Shown one piece after another: positions 12,405-50,448 of a stretch of 64,000 nt of DNA (within the stretch, counting starts at the first letter, position 1; each line of letters starts with the position of its first letter). Both the position numbers and the translations under genes were made by a program. The DNA comes from Escherichia coli (GTDB lineage Bacteria > Pseudomonadota > Gammaproteobacteria > Enterobacterales > Enterobacteriaceae): NCBI RefSeq assembly GCF_013122565.1, contig NZ_CP053258.1; one strand, given 5' to 3'. A model generated the notes under the pieces. That model searched no databases. It saw only the letters and a list, made by a program, of their open reading frames with translations, and was not told where the DNA came from.

Positions 12405-12776
12405 AGCTCCTCCTTAATGACAGGGTTGCGAAGCCCTGATTCTCTTCAGGGTGAGTATTAAAGATAACACAAACATCGCGTAACGATTTGATAACAACCC
12501 AAATTGATAAAAGAGGAGAAACCTTGTGGCAAAGCAAATGAAAACCCCGCCGCAGCGGGGTCAAGGATCAGTGAGTAATGATCCAGAGGAGTTCGGCCCA
12601 GAAGAGCATCGACAGAGAAAATGCACCCATCCAGGACCAATATTTCATATTTGTGTTGATCATAGGCTACACCTTTAACGGTTATTACTTTGTGTTGAGA
12701 TAACTCAACCTGTTATTGCTGTGGTGTATTAAAAGCCCTTTAATTCATTAAAAATGGGTAATAAGAATGATGATAA

Positions 12777-12965
12777 TTATTGTTTCGGCTGTTCATCTTC
12801 AGCAAACAGTTCTATAAAGGCTTGCTGCTGCGATGTTAGTTGCCAGTCGTCTGGAATAATGACGGAACATTCCCGTTTCGTTTCTGGTTCATTATCACTA
12901 TGCTGACATAATGGTGACGACTCCAGTTGCTCCTGACCGACCATAGTTATCCCCACACTTTCCAA
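12777..12965 (-). CDS. yciX: Small protein of unknown function
   Basis: 62-aa ORF in the acnA-cysB spacer, overlapping the 3' end of the ymiA ORF; recalled as a K-12 small gene, weak evidence. Confidence 0.45.
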   Translation of the reverse strand: MESVGITMVGQEQLESSPLCQHSDNEPETKRECSVIIPDDWQLTSQQQAFIELFAEDEQPKQ

Positions 12966-13075
12966 ATCAGCAGTGCGACAACCACCCAGAAAAGTGCAGA
13001 ACCAAGAAAAACCGCCAGCCAGGCTTTACGTTTTAATTCAGGATCGCGGCGGGGTTCCTGATTTCCAGAAGGCAT
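12947..13075 (-). CDS. ymiA: Small membrane protein (42 aa)
   Basis: Hand-translated minus-strand ORF MPSGNQEPRRDPELKRKAWLAVFLGSALFWVVVALLIWKVWG; single TM helix; below the ORF-track size cutoff. Confidence 0.5.
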   Translation of the reverse strand: MPSGNQEPRRDPELKRKAWLAVFLGSALFWVVVALLIWKVWG

Positions 13076-13403
13076 TGCTAACCTCATATAATCGCCATCA
13101 CTTATCAGCAAGACGTTGAACGATTGGTGTAATTAATCATACGATGAGACAAATCCTAAAGAAACTTTAGTCAAAAATCCAGCGAATTTACGAATCGTAT
13201 CCAGTGAATAATTCAATCTTTTGACCTGAAATAGATATTTGAAAACTGGAGTTTGCGAGGCGGGTAATTAGACACTACTTTACAGGTAATTTACCCTATA
13301 AATATGAGGGATAAAATATTGTGCACGATATACAAATAAGTAACAAAGAAAATATATTTCGGCACCTTCGCTACATAAAAGGTGCCGAAAATAACGCAAG
13401 AAA

Positions 13404-44279: not shown

Positions 44280-45911
44280 TTAGTGCTTCACAATGTACAT
44301 ATTCCGGGTGTAGGTATTATCCAGCGGATCTTTGCCGGTATAGCCACCAACCCACGGTTTCACCAGACGCGCATTCACGTAGTAATAAACAGGAACAATG
44401 GCCGAATCCTTATCCAGCTGTTGTTCTGCTTTAGTGTACAGAGCTGTGCGCTGCGCCTCGTCAGTCACTTTCAGCGTTTCCGCCATAATGCTGTCAAAGG
44501 CCGGGCTCTTATAATGCGCGGTATTCATCGAGCTGTTCGACAGCATGGTGTTCAGGAAGGAAGTTGGTTCGTTATAGTCTGCACACCAGCCTGCACGGGC
44601 CACATCAAAAGTGCCCTGATGACGGGTGTCGAGGAACGTTTTCCACTCCTGGTTAACCAGTTTGACGTTTACACCAATGTTTTTCTTCCACAATGAAGAG
44701 GCAGCAATCGCCAGCTTTTTATGCAGATCGGAGGTGTTATACAACAGGTTGATGGTCAACGGTTTGTCTGCGGTATAACCCGCTTCAGCCAGCAGTTTTT
44801 TTGCTTCTTCGTTACGTTTTTCCTGGCTCCAGCCAAACCATTCCGGCTGAGTCAATTTTGCGCCATCAGTATACGGTGGAGTGTAACCATAGGCGGGCAT
44901 GTCGCCCTGTGCTTTCACTTTATTAACAATGATATCGCGGTCCATACCCAGTTTCAGTGCGGTACGCACACGCACATCGTTGAATGGCGGTTTCTGGTTG
45001 TTAATTTCGTAATAGTAAGTGCACAGGTATGGATCAACGTGAACTTCGTCCGGGATCTCTTTTTTCAGCTTCTGGAACAATTCGATCGGCATATTGTTAT
45101 ACGTCATGTCGATTTCACCACTACGGTAGCGGTTGACATCAGTAACTTCAGAAGCAATAGGCAAATAGGTTACCTGGTTAATAACGGTTTTCGCGTTGTT
45201 CCAGTAGGTCGGGCTGCGTTCAAGAACGATTCGTTCGTTTACGACCCAATCTTTTAAGGTATAGGCACCGTTGGTGACGATATTACCAGGCTGGGTCCAT
45301 TTTTCGCCGAATTTCTCGATAGCGGCTTTTGGCACCGGTGAAGTTGATGGGTGAACAAGTAATTTATAGAAGTACGGAACGGGTTCACTTAAGGTGACTT
45401 CTAATGTGTGATCATCAATAGCTTTCACGCCGAGATCGGTAATCGGTTTTTTCCCTTCAAGAATTTCATCAATACCGGCGATATGCCCATATTGCAGATA
45501 ACTGGCATACGGAGAAGCGGTGTTTGGATCAACAGAACGTTGCCAGCTATACACAAAGTCTTGTGCTGTGACTGGCGTGCCATCAGACCATTTCGCATCT
45601 TTACGCAAATGGAAGGTCCAGACTTTCGCGTCTTTATTATCCCAGGATTCAGCGACGCCAGGTGCCGGATGACCGTCAAGGTCGCTGACCAGTAAGCCTT
45701 CAAACAGGTCCCGGCTGATATTAGACTCCGGCACACCTTCAATTTTGTGCGGATCTAATGACTGAACTTCTGAACCATTGTTACGTACCAGCGTTTGTTT
45801 TTCCGCCAGTGTGACGCCTGCGGGTACATCAGCTGCCAGCGCGACATTCCCTGCCATTAGCGCAGCCAGAACGCCAGCTGCTACTAAACTTCTCTTGGTG
45901 ATGTTGGTCAT
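44280..45911 (-). CDS. oppA: Periplasmic oligopeptide-binding protein
   Basis: Start at internal Met giving 543 aa MTNITKRSLVAAGVLAALMAGNVALA... (signal peptide); family 5 solute-binding protein. Confidence 0.95.
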   Translation of the reverse strand: MTNITKRSLVAAGVLAALMAGNVALAADVPAGVTLAEKQTLVRNNGSEVQSLDPHKIEGVPESNISRDLFEGLLVSDLDGHPAPGVAESWDNKDAKVWTFHLRKDAKWSDGTPVTAQDFVYSWQRSVDPNTASPYASYLQYGHIAGIDEILEGKKPITDLGVKAIDDHTLEVTLSEPVPYFYKLLVHPSTSPVPKAAIEKFGEKWTQPGNIVTNGAYTLKDWVVNERIVLERSPTYWNNAKTVINQVTYLPIASEVTDVNRYRSGEIDMTYNNMPIELFQKLKKEIPDEVHVDPYLCTYYYEINNQKPPFNDVRVRTALKLGMDRDIIVNKVKAQGDMPAYGYTPPYTDGAKLTQPEWFGWSQEKRNEEAKKLLAEAGYTADKPLTINLLYNTSDLHKKLAIAASSLWKKNIGVNVKLVNQEWKTFLDTRHQGTFDVARAGWCADYNEPTSFLNTMLSNSSMNTAHYKSPAFDSIMAETLKVTDEAQRTALYTKAEQQLDKDSAIVPVYYYVNARLVKPWVGGYTGKDPLDNTYTRNMYIVKH

Positions 45912-46647
45912 TGTTTTTTGGACTCCCTCATTATAATTACTGGTAGTAACCAGCATGTGTAATCCCGGATTGGGACCCTGTACAGGCTCGGAGACTTTCT
46001 GCTGTCAGGTTACTTTATCGTTACGGATTGCTATCACCGACTTTATTTATTCTGGTGATTCAGACGATCACCTTATGTCGATTCGTACTGTGTCTCCCCT
46101 GTCGAGACACATTATTCTTTCGCGACGCTCTTTAATTGTTAATTATTCTCATTACCAATAAAAATCGTCTGGCGGTTGCCCGGAAAGTACCAAATGCGCT
46201 TCTTGCTCGCCAATACATTTTGCAAAATTGTTAAGCAATTCTCTTTTATTGACCGCAGCAGAATCTATAGCTTGCATCCATGTCTTAACAAACATCTTTC
46301 AATTCAATCAAATAGAGATTGGTTAAGCATGTCTATCTTTTCTGATTACAGTTCCCGTAGTGAAATGCACAATAATTTAACAATTGATTATTATTTAGCA
46401 CTTTCCTCTGCCAAAGGCAGTGGAATTACTAATATCATTTCAATTATTCTTCAGCAAGCCCAGGATTATGATGTGGTGAAAATAACATGATGGTGAGGAG
46501 AAGCAGTTAAGGAAATCCTTATAACTAACTGTAATTTGAGAAGAATATTTTTACCTATTCCTTTTGCTTTTGATAACTGCGTAGGAACAAAGTAAAAATA
46601 ATGACGAAGTAAACGGAGCATGGCGGCTCCGTTTCATTTGAAAGGAA

Positions 46648-47295
46648 TTAATTAAGCAGGCCGGGGAAAATCCCCTTAATACCAGTAACGATAAATTCAA
46701 TCCCCAATGCCATCAGCAATAGCCCCATAATACGCGTAATCACGTTGATGCCGGTCTGGCGTAAAACCCGTACCAGCCACGGTGCCATGCGGAACAATCC
46801 CCAGCAACATAAAGCGAACAACGCAATAGCCACAAAGAAACCAAACAGATAGCTAATGCTGTGATAACGCGTACCCCAGACGATGGTAGAACTGATCGCC
46901 CCTGGCCCCGCCATCAACGGCAACGCCAATGGCACCACACCAATGCTTTCACGTACCGCGGTTTCTGATTTTTCTTGCTTGTTCTGTTTATCCTCACCAA
47001 GCTTGCCGCTGATCATCGACATCGCTATTGTCACCACCAGGATGCCACCGGCGATACGGAATGAATCAATTGATATACCAAAAAGTTGTAGAATCGTGTC
47101 GCCGAGAAAAAGCGAGATCCACAAGATAATGGCCACAGACAGGTTGGCTGTAAGGTTAGTTTTGTTTCGCGCTGCCGCTGTCTGATAACTGGTCATGCTG
47201 ATAAAGACGGGAATAATCCCTACCGGGTTGACCAGCGCAAATAACCCGATGAAAAATTTGAAGTAAACGGGAAAATCAAAAAGGGTCTGAATCAC
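46648..47295 (-). CDS. ychE: MarC-family inner-membrane protein
   Basis: 215 aa, six predicted TM helices. Confidence 0.88.
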   Translation of the reverse strand: MIQTLFDFPVYFKFFIGLFALVNPVGIIPVFISMTSYQTAAARNKTNLTANLSVAIILWISLFLGDTILQLFGISIDSFRIAGGILVVTIAMSMISGKLGEDKQNKQEKSETAVRESIGVVPLALPLMAGPGAISSTIVWGTRYHSISYLFGFFVAIALFALCCWGLFRMAPWLVRVLRQTGINVITRIMGLLLMALGIEFIVTGIKGIFPGLLN

Positions 47296-47772
47296 GGTTA
47301 GCTCCGAAGCAAAAGCCGGATAATGTTAGCCATAAATAAGGTTGAAAAGACGCGCTGACAATACGCCTTTTGACGGCATTTTTCACCTCCTAACTACTTA
47401 AAATTGCTATCATTCGTTATTGTTATCTGGTTGTGCAAAACATGCTAATGTAGCCACCAAATCATACTACAATTTATTAACTGTTAGCTATAATGGCGAA
47501 AAGCGATGCTGAAAGGTGTCAGCTTTGCAAAAATTTGATTTGGATCACGTAATAAGTACCCAGAAGTGAGTAATCTTGCTTACGCCACCAGGAAGTGACG
47601 CATTAGAGATAAATAGCTCTAATGTTTAAACTCTTTTAGTAAATCACAGCGAGTGTGAGCGCGAGTAAGCTTTTGATTTTCATTGGTTAAGCAAATCATC
47701 ACCGCACTGACTATACTCTCGTATTCGAGCAGATGATTTACTAAAAAAGTTTAACATTATCAGGAGAGCATT

Positions 47773-50448
47773 ATGGCTGTTACTAATGTCGCTGAACTTA
47801 ACGCACTCGTAGAGCGTGTAAAAAAAGCCCAGCGTGAATATGCCAGTTTCACTCAAGAGCAAGTAGACAAAATCTTCCGCGCCGCCGCTCTGGCTGCTGC
47901 AGATGCTCGAATCCCACTCGCGAAAATGGCCGTTGCCGAATCCGGCATGGGTATCGTCGAAGATAAAGTGATCAAAAACCACTTTGCTTCTGAATATATC
48001 TACAACGCCTATAAAGATGAAAAAACCTGTGGTGTTCTGTCTGAAGACGACACTTTTGGTACCATCACTATCGCTGAACCAATCGGTATTATTTGCGGTA
48101 TCGTTCCGACCACTAACCCGACTTCAACTGCTATCTTCAAATCGCTGATCAGCCTGAAGACCCGTAACGCCATTATCTTCTCCCCGCACCCGCGTGCAAA
48201 AGATGCAACCAACAAAGCGGCTGATATCGTTCTGCAGGCTGCTATCGCTGCCGGTGCTCCGAAAGATCTGATCGGCTGGATCGATCAACCTTCTGTTGAA
48301 CTGTCTAACGCACTGATGCACCACCCAGACATCAACCTGATCCTCGCGACTGGTGGTCCGGGCATGGTTAAAGCCGCATACAGCTCCGGTAAACCAGCTA
48401 TCGGCGTAGGCGCGGGTAACACTCCGGTTGTTATCGATGAAACTGCTGATATCAAACGTGCAGTTGCATCTGTACTGATGTCCAAAACCTTCGACAACGG
48501 CGTAATCTGTGCTTCTGAACAGTCTGTTGTTGTTGTTGACTCTGTTTATGACGCAGTACGTGAACGTTTTGCAACCCACGGCGGCTATCTGTTGCAGGGT
48601 AAAGAGCTGAAAGCTGTTCAGGATGTTATCCTGAAAAACGGTGCGCTGAACGCGGCTATCGTTGGTCAGCCAGCCTATAAAATTGCTGAACTGGCAGGCT
48701 TCTCTGTACCAGAAAACACCAAGATTCTGATCGGTGAAGTGACCGTTGTTGATGAAAGCGAACCGTTCGCACATGAAAAACTGTCCCCGACTCTGGCAAT
48801 GTACCGTGCTAAAGATTTCGAAGACGCGGTAGAAAAAGCAGAGAAACTGGTTGCTATGGGTGGTATCGGTCATACCTCTTGCCTGTACACTGACCAGGAT
48901 AACCAACCGGCTCGCGTTTCTTACTTCGGTCAGAAAATGAAAACGGCTCGTATCCTGATTAACACCCCGGCTTCTCAGGGTGGTATCGGTGACCTGTATA
49001 ACTTCAAACTCGCACCTTCCCTGACTCTGGGTTGTGGTTCTTGGGGTGGTAACTCCATCTCTGAAAACGTTGGTCCGAAACACCTGATCAACAAGAAAAC
49101 CGTTGCTAAGCGAGCTGAAAACATGTTGTGGCACAAACTTCCGAAATCTATCTACTTCCGCCGTGGCTCCCTGCCAATCGCGCTGGATGAAGTGATTACT
49201 GATGGCCACAAACGTGCGCTCATCGTGACTGACCGCTTCCTGTTCAACAATGGTTATGCTGATCAGATCACTTCCGTACTGAAAGCAGCAGGCGTTGAAA
49301 CTGAAGTCTTCTTCGAAGTAGAAGCGGACCCGACCCTGAGCATCGTTCGTAAAGGTGCAGAACTGGCAAACTCCTTCAAACCAGACGTGATTATCGCGCT
49401 GGGTGGTGGTTCCCCGATGGACGCCGCGAAGATCATGTGGGTTATGTACGAACATCCGGAAACTCACTTCGAAGAGCTGGCGCTGCGCTTTATGGATATC
49501 CGTAAACGTATCTACAAGTTCCCGAAAATGGGCGTGAAAGCGAAAATGATCGCTGTCACCACCACTTCTGGTACAGGTTCTGAAGTCACTCCGTTTGCGG
49601 TTGTAACTGACGACGCTACTGGTCAGAAATATCCGCTGGCAGACTATGCGCTGACTCCGGATATGGCGATTGTCGACGCCAACCTGGTTATGGACATGCC
49701 GAAGTCCCTGTGTGCTTTCGGTGGTCTGGACGCAGTAACTCACGCCATGGAAGCTTATGTTTCTGTACTGGCATCTGAGTTCTCTGATGGTCAGGCTCTG
49801 CAGGCACTGAAACTGCTGAAAGAATATCTGCCAGCGTCCTACCACGAAGGGTCTAAAAATCCGGTAGCGCGTGAACGTGTTCACAGTGCAGCGACTATCG
49901 CGGGTATCGCGTTTGCGAACGCCTTCCTGGGTGTATGTCACTCAATGGCGCACAAACTGGGTTCCCAGTTCCATATTCCGCACGGTCTGGCAAACGCCCT
50001 GCTGATTTGTAACGTTATTCGCTACAACGCGAACGACAACCCGACCAAGCAGACTGCATTCAGCCAGTATGACCGTCCGCAGGCTCGCCGTCGTTATGCT
50101 GAAATTGCTGACCACCTGGGTCTGAGCGCACCGGGCGACCGTACTGCTGCTAAGATCGAGAAACTGCTGGCATGGCTGGAAACGCTGAAAGCTGAACTGG
50201 GTATTCCGAAATCTATCCGTGAAGCTGGCGTTCAGGAAGCAGACTTCCTGGCGAATGTGGATAAACTGTCTGAAGATGCATTCGATGACCAGTGCACTGG
50301 CGCTAACCCGCGTTACCCGCTGATCTCCGAGCTGAAACAGATTCTGCTGGATACCTACTACGGTCGTGATTATGTAGAAGGCGAAACTGCAGCGAAGAAA
50401 GAAGCTGCTCCGGCTAAAGCTGAGAAAAAAGCGAAAAAATCCGCTTAA
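47773..50448 (+). CDS. adhE: Bifunctional acetaldehyde-CoA / alcohol dehydrogenase
   Basis: 891 aa; N-terminal aldehyde dehydrogenase half, C-terminal Fe-alcohol dehydrogenase half, Lys/Ala-rich tail. Confidence 0.97.

Follow-up and report, generated by a model that had tools for sequence, protein, structure and literature searches.

The ychE–oppA interval of an Escherichia coli genome as regulatory region and long 5′ leader of oppA

Described oppA leaders and the present locus

The promoter region and 5′-UTR of oppA have been characterized in detail in E. coli K-12 (Igarashi et al. 1997, via other papers; Carrier, Lalaouna and Masse 2023, PMC9988348). Primer extension identified two start sites there, P1 (+1) and P2 (+246), and a third apparent start, published as P3 (+341), was shown with rne3071 and XRN-1 to be an RNase E processing site (PMC9988348). 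In the same strain, oppA is repressed both by GcvB, at the ribosome-binding site, and by Hfq, a short way upstream of the Shine-Dalgarno sequence (SD), and MicF pairs with nucleotides +372 to +393, as seen by lead-acetate protection and as reported from compensatory MicF/oppA mutants; without nucleotides 399–413, OppA-LacZ fell by 46% and MicF no longer had an effect (PMC9988348). Polyamines stabilise a bulged helix close to the AUG and thereby raise OppA synthesis roughly five-fold (PMC4951125), and the leader has been called a polyamine riboswitch (PMC9988348). The oppA leader is a published case of one mRNA that integrates two opposing small RNAs together with Hfq, RNase E and polyamines. 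The protein itself takes up peptides, including toxic ones, and has been implicated in aminoglycoside resistance; its gene is a member of the polyamine modulon.

It is informative to set this leader beside three related systems. According to the summary of Matera et al. 2022 given in PMC9988348, Salmonella OppX exists in forms of 410, 190 and 109 nt and is a sponge for MicF. The E. coli and Salmonella studies disagree on whether the leader is a MicF target or the MicF sponge OppX (PMC9988348); in the accessible accounts of the Salmonella work (PMC10703908, PMC9988348) the role of OppX is that of a trans-acting sponge, whereas in K-12 the effect is activation of oppA in cis. The Salmonella OppX leader is orthologous to the one considered here; GTCGGTGATAGCA, the core of the MicF site, is identical or almost identical in both, as are the P1 and P2 blocks and the RNase E motif. 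A second group consists of ABC-transporter leaders such as that of dppA, which are reportedly repressed by GcvB (work said to be that of Urbanowski in 2000, Sharma in 2007 and Pulvermacher in 2008). Leaders of the dppA type have a CA-rich target at the ribosome-binding site that pairs with the GU-rich R1 region of GcvB; oppA would be alike in this respect, and it adds a distal MicF site, two promoters and RNase E processing. Finally, oppA of Yersinia pseudotuberculosis has an RNA thermometer (cited in PMC11342760), likewise a matter of leader RNA structure, in another genus that lies outside the 80 loci compared below.

The window, by which we mean the whole 64,000-nucleotide stretch of E. coli DNA that was analysed, contains the same locus as K-12 with the same order of features. 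The interval between ychE and oppA is real and functional and is already known in detail from K-12; we put at roughly 0.9 the probability that it is the cis-regulatory region plus the long 5′-untranslated leader of oppABCDF, transcribed from the minus strand. In annotation, it is best described as regulatory region and 5′-UTR of oppA. Start sites and RNA–RNA and RNA–protein interactions were measured in K-12 or Salmonella and are carried over to the window by sequence. Read in this way, transcription would begin at P1 (46421) and P2 (46176), and the P1 transcript, with its leader of about 510 nt, would be cut by RNase E at 46082 to leave a leader of 171 nt. GcvB lying over the start codon and Hfq bound just upstream of the SD would repress translation of oppA; MicF, paired some 120 nt ahead of the AUG, would expose the adjacent AU-rich enhancer and raise translation, as would polyamines acting on the bulged helix near the AUG. 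At the DNA level, Lrp would repress and leucine would release this repression, ArcA would act on two boxes and Fur on a box downstream of P2, and H-NS is reported to bind the AT-rich spacer. The features on which this reading rests are collected in Table 1.

Table 1. Features of the ychE–oppA interval and its flanking genes, in window coordinates
Feature	Position	Strand	Details
ychE	46648-47295	-	stop codon TAA 46650-46648
ychE–oppA spacer	45912-46647		736 bp; minus-strand genes on both sides
Hairpin AAACGGAGC-CGCCAU-GCUCCGUUU	46611..46634	-	right after ychE stop codon; read from sequence
Conserved upstream element, family consensus TGTTATTTTACTCACATCAT	46464..46487	-	about -66 to -43 of P1; resembles a CRP site
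Promoter P1 (apparent hexamers)	46421..46457	-	-35 TTGCTG 46457-46452; 17-bp spacer; TG 46437-46436; -10 TATTAG 46434-46429; start A46421
Conserved block GCAGAGGAAAGTGCTAAATAATAATCAA	46384..46410	-	P1 +12 to +38; contains the CTAA IS5 target of MG1655
ArcA box 1 TTGTTAAATTATTGTGCATTT	46363..46383	-	P1 +39 to +59; site oppA1 of PMC3798270
Poorly conserved AT-rich stretch between P1 and P2	46250..46362	-	identity to window base mostly <50% (78 species)
ArcA box 2 ATTTTGCAAAATTGTTAAGCA	46217..46237	+	P2 -41 to -61; site oppA2 of PMC3798270
Promoter P2 (apparent hexamers)	46176..46213	-	-35 TTGGCG 46213-46208; 18-bp spacer; TG 46192-46191; -10 TACTTT 46189-46184; start A46176
104-aa open reading frame, TTG start	46176..46490	+	antisense to leader; 98 aa from ATG 46194
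Fur box TGTTAATTATTCTCA	46137..46151	+	P2 +26 to +40; 12/14 matches to TGATAAT-N-ATTATCA
Second plus-strand open reading frame, 68 aa	45955-46161	+	from the open reading frame list
Hairpin H1 GUGUCUC-GACAGGG-GAGACAC	46090..46110	-	7 pairs, 6 changed on both sides; 90.7% of cells paired (80 sequences)
RNase E region, single-stranded AAUCGACAUAAGG	46072..46084	-	cut 5′ of A46082 (+341) in K-12 (PMC9988348)
Hairpin H2 GGUGAU-CGUCUGA-AUCACC	46054..46072	-	6 pairs, 5 with compensatory changes; 96.1% paired
MicF pairing site AAUAAAUAAAGUCGGUGAUAGC	46030..46051	-	K-12 +372 to +393
AU-rich stretch, proposed translation enhancer	46010..46024	-	K-12 +399 to +413, mapped from +341 = 46082
Hairpin H3 CCUGACAG...CUGU[A]CAGG	45977..46009	-	A45981 bulged; 8 pairs, 6 with compensatory changes; 93.1% paired
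Hairpin H5 CUGGU-UACU-ACCAG	45940..45953	-	5 pairs, 3 with compensatory changes; 98.3% paired; adjoins SD region
Initiation region	45897..45929	-	SD GAGGGAG 45929-45923; AUG 45911-45909; predicted CA-rich GcvB R1 target 45921-45897
oppA	44280-45911	-	ATG 45911-45909

The spacer, its conservation and its open reading frames

An earlier note on this DNA had described about 730 AT-rich base pairs between ychE and the oppA start, which agrees with the exact figures of 736 bp and a GC content of 37.6%; the window as a whole has 49.6%, and the lowest value in the spacer, 0.32, falls at 46200–46400. A crude open reading frame map of the window has about 52 gaps with a median of 80 bp, and only two of them are larger than this one. 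Around it lie oppB, oppA, ychE and the small gene ychT on the minus strand and adhE, diverging, on the plus strand; the identities of oppA and ychE follow the RefSeq annotation of near-identical E. coli loci. The mechanical list of open reading frames begins oppA farther upstream, with the in-frame ATG 45956; the position of the SD, the pattern of conservation and the RefSeq annotation all place the start at 45911 instead. The hairpin that follows ychE is probably the terminator of that gene, to judge by its position; it is moderately conserved among 78 species, and a simple terminator scan did not flag it on the minus strand.

Within E. coli, the spacer is present in 5423 of 5426 complete genomes at 95–99% identity. 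The best match among these genomes does not exceed 98.1%, so that the window would stem from an Escherichia lineage absent from that set. It differs from the IS5-free K-12 spacer at about 20 of 736 positions, with every primer-defined landmark kept, and the window locus is 95.5% identical to that of Escherichia sp. MOD1-EC7003 over 7.6 kb. For comparison at greater distance, we used 80 loci with close OppA relatives, taken from species-representative genomes of many Enterobacteriaceae genera. In 77 of these, ychE lies upstream on the same strand at a distance of 713–878 bp, and the remaining three loci end short upstream of oppA; because both the synteny and the length are kept in 77 of 80, the long spacer is an old and maintained feature. 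Conservation is blockwise, with about half of the spacer in blocks conserved at 90% or more. These blocks are 46487–46464, the P1 core, P1 +12 to +59, 46248–46181, the Fur box, the loop of H1, the motif AATCGAC, the MicF site, and the region from H5 through the SD to the first codons; poorly conserved are 46490–46610, 46250–46362 and, the Fur box excepted, 46105–46175. The conserved blocks coincide with P1, P2, the ArcA and Fur boxes, the RNase E site, the MicF site and the SD and AUG. A search of Rfam 15 over 45500–47800 at permissive E-values returned just three chance-level matches (E 0.16–0.8), all far below gathering.

Two readings that would deprive the interval of its role as a leader deserve consideration here, and both have some observations in their favor. 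One is that the plus-strand open reading frame of 98 or 104 codons is a real, lineage-restricted protein gene, in which case the untranslated interval would be far shorter than 736 bp. Its 98-aa version is the PGAP hypothetical protein WP_001211521.1, called in many E. coli genomes, and its length is unusual: when the spacer was shuffled 1000 times with its dinucleotides kept, an open reading frame of at least 104 codons arose in only 3% of cases (mean 64). The earlier note had dismissed this frame as a hydrophobic, low-complexity, statistical product of AT-rich sequence, and in these respects it was mistaken, since the GRAVY value is -0.11, the highest 19-aa hydropathy window 1.34 and the Shannon entropy 4.03 bits, and since AT-richness disfavours long open reading frames and so does not explain this one as a by-product. 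Its statement that there is no other open reading frame in the interval is correct at a threshold of 100 aa, although not for the shorter 68-aa frame of Table 1. Yet a protein gene is very improbable. The frame carries 2–11 in-frame stops in 77 of 77 other species, among them the three closest Escherichia species of the comparison (89–96% DNA identity over the locus); a Pfam search of the 104-aa product found no family (best E-value 0.14, below the curated cut-off); IS5 in MG1655 and IS1 in strain J2 interrupt the frame with no known consequence; and some PGAP annotations omit it. It runs antisense to the mapped promoters, with one end exactly at the P2 start and the other 69 bp upstream of P1, over the least conserved DNA of the spacer. 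From its broken frame in all 77 other species, the open reading frame is almost certainly non-coding, as had been supposed, and the PGAP hypothetical protein is very likely spurious.

The other reading takes the spacer for AT-rich filler, or for a horizontally acquired or IS-scarred remnant silenced by H-NS, in which only a short promoter next to oppA is functional. The low GC content fits such an origin, as do the H-NS flag in the spacer, the poor conservation of 46250–46362 and 46490–46610, and the insertions that recur in E. coli spacers, namely IS5, IS2 and IS1: in sequenced MG1655 (NC_000913.3 junctions), IS5 splits the spacer between P1 and P2 at a CTAA target corresponding to 46399–46396, and in strain J2 an IS1 lies at about 46293–46305, with the spacer of the window itself free of IS elements. 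Nonetheless, filler would hardly be expected to keep its length and gene order across 77 species of many genera, to hold about half of its sequence in blocks at least 90% conserved, or to encode hairpins that covary; in addition, starts are mapped 265 and 510 nt upstream of oppA, and published P1, P2 and delta-399 fusions change oppA expression. We regard this reading as scarcely credible and return to the interval as the regulatory region and leader of oppA.

Promoters and protein-binding sites

The K-12 numbering was placed on the window by way of the primers in PMC9988348. The T7-oppA primer begins ATCGACATAAGG, so that +341 is 46082; 46421 is the end of the reverse primer for the P1 promoter and 46418 the first base of the P2-only forward primer, and the placement was corrected for a single indel, the window having one nucleotide fewer than K-12 at 46163. 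This anchoring is supported by the published MicF site, which falls on 46051–46030 in agreement with an independent duplex scan, by the published Fur coordinate of -233, which is the best Fur match of the window, and by the ArcA boxes, which are found verbatim. On this scale, the AUG is K-12 +512; transcripts from P1 would have a leader of about 510 nt and those from P2 one of 265 nt, and processing would leave 171 nt.

As judged from sequence, the cores of both promoters are present in the window at about -510 and -265 from the ATG, and the hexamers of Table 1 are our likely assignments. The earlier note had set against its own view the case of a start next to the ATG and an interval free of regulatory sites; the K-12 starts lie 510 and 265 nt upstream. 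The P1 core block, GCTTGCTG...GAAATGATATTAGTAAT, is at least 95% conserved and the P2 region 46248–46181, which takes in ArcA box 2, at least 90% (78 species each). The presumed P1 -10 element ends in G in the window (46429, TATTAG) and in T in K-12 (TATTAT). The G is the family consensus, and 4772 of 5420 E. coli genomes share the 51-nt P1 core of the window without a difference; by this sequence count, the K-12-like T is a minority allele, present in at most 12% of E. coli genomes. A suggestion that every functional position is atypical in K-12 thus held only in part, the K-12-like version being in the minority at the P1 -10 element and in the majority (about 86%) in the stretch around the MicF site.

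Genomic SELEX gave a peak of sigma-70 holoenzyme in the ychE–oppA spacer (PMC3946193). A simple promoter scan missed both P1 and P2. It proposed TTGGCA-16-AATAAT at 46414–46387 and TTAACA-17-AAGAAT at 46142–46114 on the minus strand, the latter also in Shimada 2014; both were set aside because they disagree with the mapped starts.

Control of oppA by nucleoid proteins, proposed earlier from the length of the leader, is supported by published binding data. Lrp gives two ChIP peaks at oppA and represses it, and leucine, isoleucine and valine abolish the peaks with de-repression of oppA (PMC10127797), and H-NS has been flagged in the ychE–oppA spacer in a genomic SELEX paper (PMC3946193). Park et al. 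report that oppA is directly activated by ArcA and co-regulated by FNR (PMC3798270). Of the two ArcA sites in the supplement of that paper, oppA1 (U00096.2 1298733-1298753, 15.1 bits) lies under a K-12 ChIP peak, and oppA2 is at 1298879-1298899 with 16 bits; both sequences occur verbatim in the window, and each is conserved across the family. Box 2 holds the perfect palindrome ATTTTGCAAAAT, which reads AATTTGCAAATT in other genera with the dyad symmetry kept. By their positions, box 2 would suit an activator of P2, and box 1 would suit a roadblock for P1.

Nowhere in the 64 kb of the window is the Fur 7-1-7 consensus matched better than at the Fur box, which has 2 mismatches and is conserved across species as ATGAGAATnATTTTCA. 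Its centre at 46144 coincides with a Fur cluster of 21.5 bits that was published at -233 relative to the oppA ATG (PMC2189734). Chen et al. found that Fur shifts this site in gel assays, and they note that repression of oppA by Fur was not seen in microarrays (PMC2189734).

Two further conserved blocks flank P1, and no published function or site for either 46487–46464 or 46410–46384 was found in the accessible literature. The upstream one is at least 90% conserved at TGTTATTT and at ACAT (78 species). It contains TGTTA-N6-CCACA in the window, centred at -58.5 of P1, where TGTTA-N6-TCACA is the conserved family consensus. This center is about 3 bp off the standard class I CRP position. Against TGTGA-N6-TCACA the element has 2 mismatches, which is chance level (29 such matches in the window, 28 expected). 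Claims of a CRP site and of an FNR site were both dropped, because consensus scans matched in the spacer at chance frequency. We offer tentatively, at somewhat less than even odds, that the two blocks may be operators for a regulator new to opp, such as a CRP-family protein, or nucleation sites of the two Lrp peaks, with the second perhaps acting instead as RNA, at the start of the P1 transcript, and, as a related suggestion, that the lineage of the window, which has the family-consensus bases in the P1 -10 element and the MicF site, may make an OppX-type MicF sponge that is absent from K-12.

The leader RNA and the question of a MicF sponge

That so long a leader implies extensive post-transcriptional control was the main suggestion of the earlier note, and it has proved well founded: RNase E, MicF, GcvB, Hfq and polyamines are all documented at the K-12 leader, and the corresponding sites map to the window. 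At the RNase E site, AATCGAC is at least 95% conserved (78 species), and the cleavage motif AAU↓CGAC is present in the window. Small-RNA targets in the leader were predicted by sliding 40-nt pieces along seed regions, after full-length RNAduplex runs of the leader against whole MicF or GcvB had given meaningless duplexes spanning hundreds of nucleotides. With MicF nucleotides 1–33, the best duplex of the spacer is at 46052–46029 (dG -22.6 kcal/mol), a value equalled by 2 of 100 shuffles. Across 80 species, the GTCGGTGATAGC of this site, which precedes the AUG by some 120 nt, hardly varies. The base at 46030 is C in the window, giving the family consensus GATAGC, where K-12 has T, so that the pair with G1 of MicF is G-C rather than G-U; at 46026 the window has C and K-12 has A. 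Over the 59 nt around the site, the window version is identical in 742 of 5399 E. coli genomes (14%), the K-12-like version accounting for about 86%. The sequence equivalent to the proposed enhancer (46010–46024) is weakly conserved. For GcvB R1, the most stable duplex of the spacer spans the start codon (45921–45897, dG -23.1), an energy matched by 30 of 100 shuffles, so that its position alone is informative; the initiation region (45897–45929) is itself a conserved block.

The leader hairpins of Table 1 were examined by aligning the ~240 nt at the 3′ end of the leader across the 80 species. Taken as a whole, the tested structure, including a further hairpin H4 (45975–45963), has 90.6% of cells paired, vs 30–42% when partners are slid by 1–3 columns. 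It contains 288 compensatory cells, vs 91 in shuffles, and its covariation score was reached by 0 of 500 shuffles. H4 had no covariation support in this 80-species alignment, probably because of alignment gaps. Folding of the single sequence was just modestly better than that of shuffles (z -1.15 and -1.82). The arrangement of H1, H2, H3 and H5 suggests that they keep the linkers between them, with the RNase E site, the MicF site and the SD, single-stranded. H3, with its bulged A, and H5 lie within 30–100 nt of the AUG; either might be the published polyamine-responsive 19-mer, and H5 may belong to the structure described there (PMC4951125).

The conflicting Salmonella work invites the question of whether the main product of the interval could instead be a stable, leader-derived small RNA of the OppX type that titrates MicF and de-represses ompF, a role that does not exclude control in cis. 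Besides the sponge forms of 410, 190 and 109 nt in the Salmonella account summarised in PMC9988348, a distance measured here is compatible with this: in the Salmonella locus of our set (L072), the MicF core ends 404 nt after the P1-equivalent start, a length in keeping with a 410-nt OppX-L that begins at P1. An Hfq-dependent ychE–oppA RNA without a terminator has been reported from E. coli RNA-seq, and the MicF site of the window has the family-consensus GATAGC with its G-C pair to MicF G1. We nonetheless consider such a product unlikely to be the principal one. Northern blots in K-12 showed no stable leader fragment, and in that strain MicF raised OppA-LacZ by direct pairing (PMC9988348); furthermore, no intrinsic terminator was predicted past the MicF site on the minus strand. 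The preferred reading thus continues to be that the leader acts chiefly in cis on oppA.

Two minor points of leader structure may be added. It was considered whether AUCACC (46059–46054) switches between two copies of GGUGAU, one of them inside the MicF site; this was rejected since in most genera no pairing is possible with the invariant MicF-site copy, and AUCACC, as the 3′ arm of H2, covaries with the upstream one. RNAalifold also pairs AUCGAC (46082–46077) with GUCGGU (46040–35), both sides of which are invariant, so that covariation is uninformative for this helix. As to the published reagents, the oppA compensatory-mutant oligonucleotides in Table S3 of PMC9988348 map beside the SD, not to +372 to +393.

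The -10 element of P1 and the lineage of the spacer

At 46429, the minus-strand base is G in the window whereas it is T in K-12, and the presumed -10 element of the oppA promoter P1 accordingly reads TATTAG in the former and TATTAT in the latter. TATTAG is the consensus across 78 Enterobacteriaceae species, and 4772 E. coli genomes, out of 5420, match the window's 51-nt P1 core base for base. The K-12 element, the one that has been studied, is thus among the minority. A G at the final -10 position is unusual for sigma-70 promoters; hence, P1 may differ in strength between K-12 and most strains.

Position 46429 is one of several, with 46410 and 46030, at which the window agrees with the Enterobacteriaceae consensus and K-12 departs from it; among E. 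coli, the window allele is rare at 46410 and 46030 and in the majority at 46429. The best match to the spacer between ychE and oppA among complete RefSeq E. coli genomes reaches at most 98.1%. Together, this ceiling and these consensus bases suggest that the window represents a deep-branching Escherichia lineage. Escherichia sp. MOD1-EC7003 is 95.5% identical to the window over 7.6 kb.

Insertion sequences around the oppA promoters

Independent IS insertions in E. coli are grouped at or between P1 and P2, the second oppA promoter (46293-46430 in the window; see the table for two of them). A table of genome differences between MG1655 and W3110 places an IS2 insertion at U00096.2 coordinate 1298687, which by coordinate conversion falls at about 46429, within the P1 -10 element. 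More large insertions beside the MG1655 IS5 were described in a study of avibactam resistance, and a contiguous copy of the spacer is absent in about 83 of 5423 genomes.

Reading frames and the oppA leader

In the RefSeq/PGAP annotation of many E. coli genomes, 46176-46490 (plus strand) is assigned a 98-aa hypothetical protein, WP_001211521.1, and in that of others nothing is annotated there; the cross-species frame test indicates that it is a spurious call. On the minus strand, an in-frame ATG lies 45 nt 5′ of the oppA start (45912-45956), just 5′ of the conserved leader hairpin H5, and because no stop intervenes, ORF finders give OppA as 558 aa rather than 543 aa. By its position, the 17-codon ORF (see table) matches YchT, a small protein annotated in K-12 (b4771).

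Table S3 of PMC9988348 gives oligos EM4466 and EM4467 for the compensatory oppA(UCG) mutant. Placed on the window, they change AGT to TCG at 45924-45922, adjoining the Shine-Dalgarno sequence, and leave unaltered the AGC at the distal pairing site for the small RNA MicF, which the text of that paper names as the functional one. Either that table or the construct as read here is incomplete.

Fur and FNR consensus matches elsewhere

Allowing up to three mismatches, matches to the Fur consensus are enriched in the 64-kb window, with 10 against 2.7 expected; none of 100 shuffles reached 10. Among these 10 are the two overlapping matches listed in the table.

Features located in and around the spacer and elsewhere in the window
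Feature	Position	Strand	Context
Fur consensus, two overlapping matches	12768-12785		inside the 999-bp gap between long ORFs, 12405-13403
IS1 insertion point in strain J2	~46293-46305		
IS5 insertion point in sequenced MG1655	CTAA, 46399-46396		P1 +23 to +26
17-codon ORF MPSKGVLSARLFNLIYG	47326-47379	-	GGAGG in front; just upstream of ychE
FNR-like site, one mismatch	47535-47548		adhE-ychE divergent spacer
FNR consensus, perfect match TTGATGCTTATCAA	57733-57746
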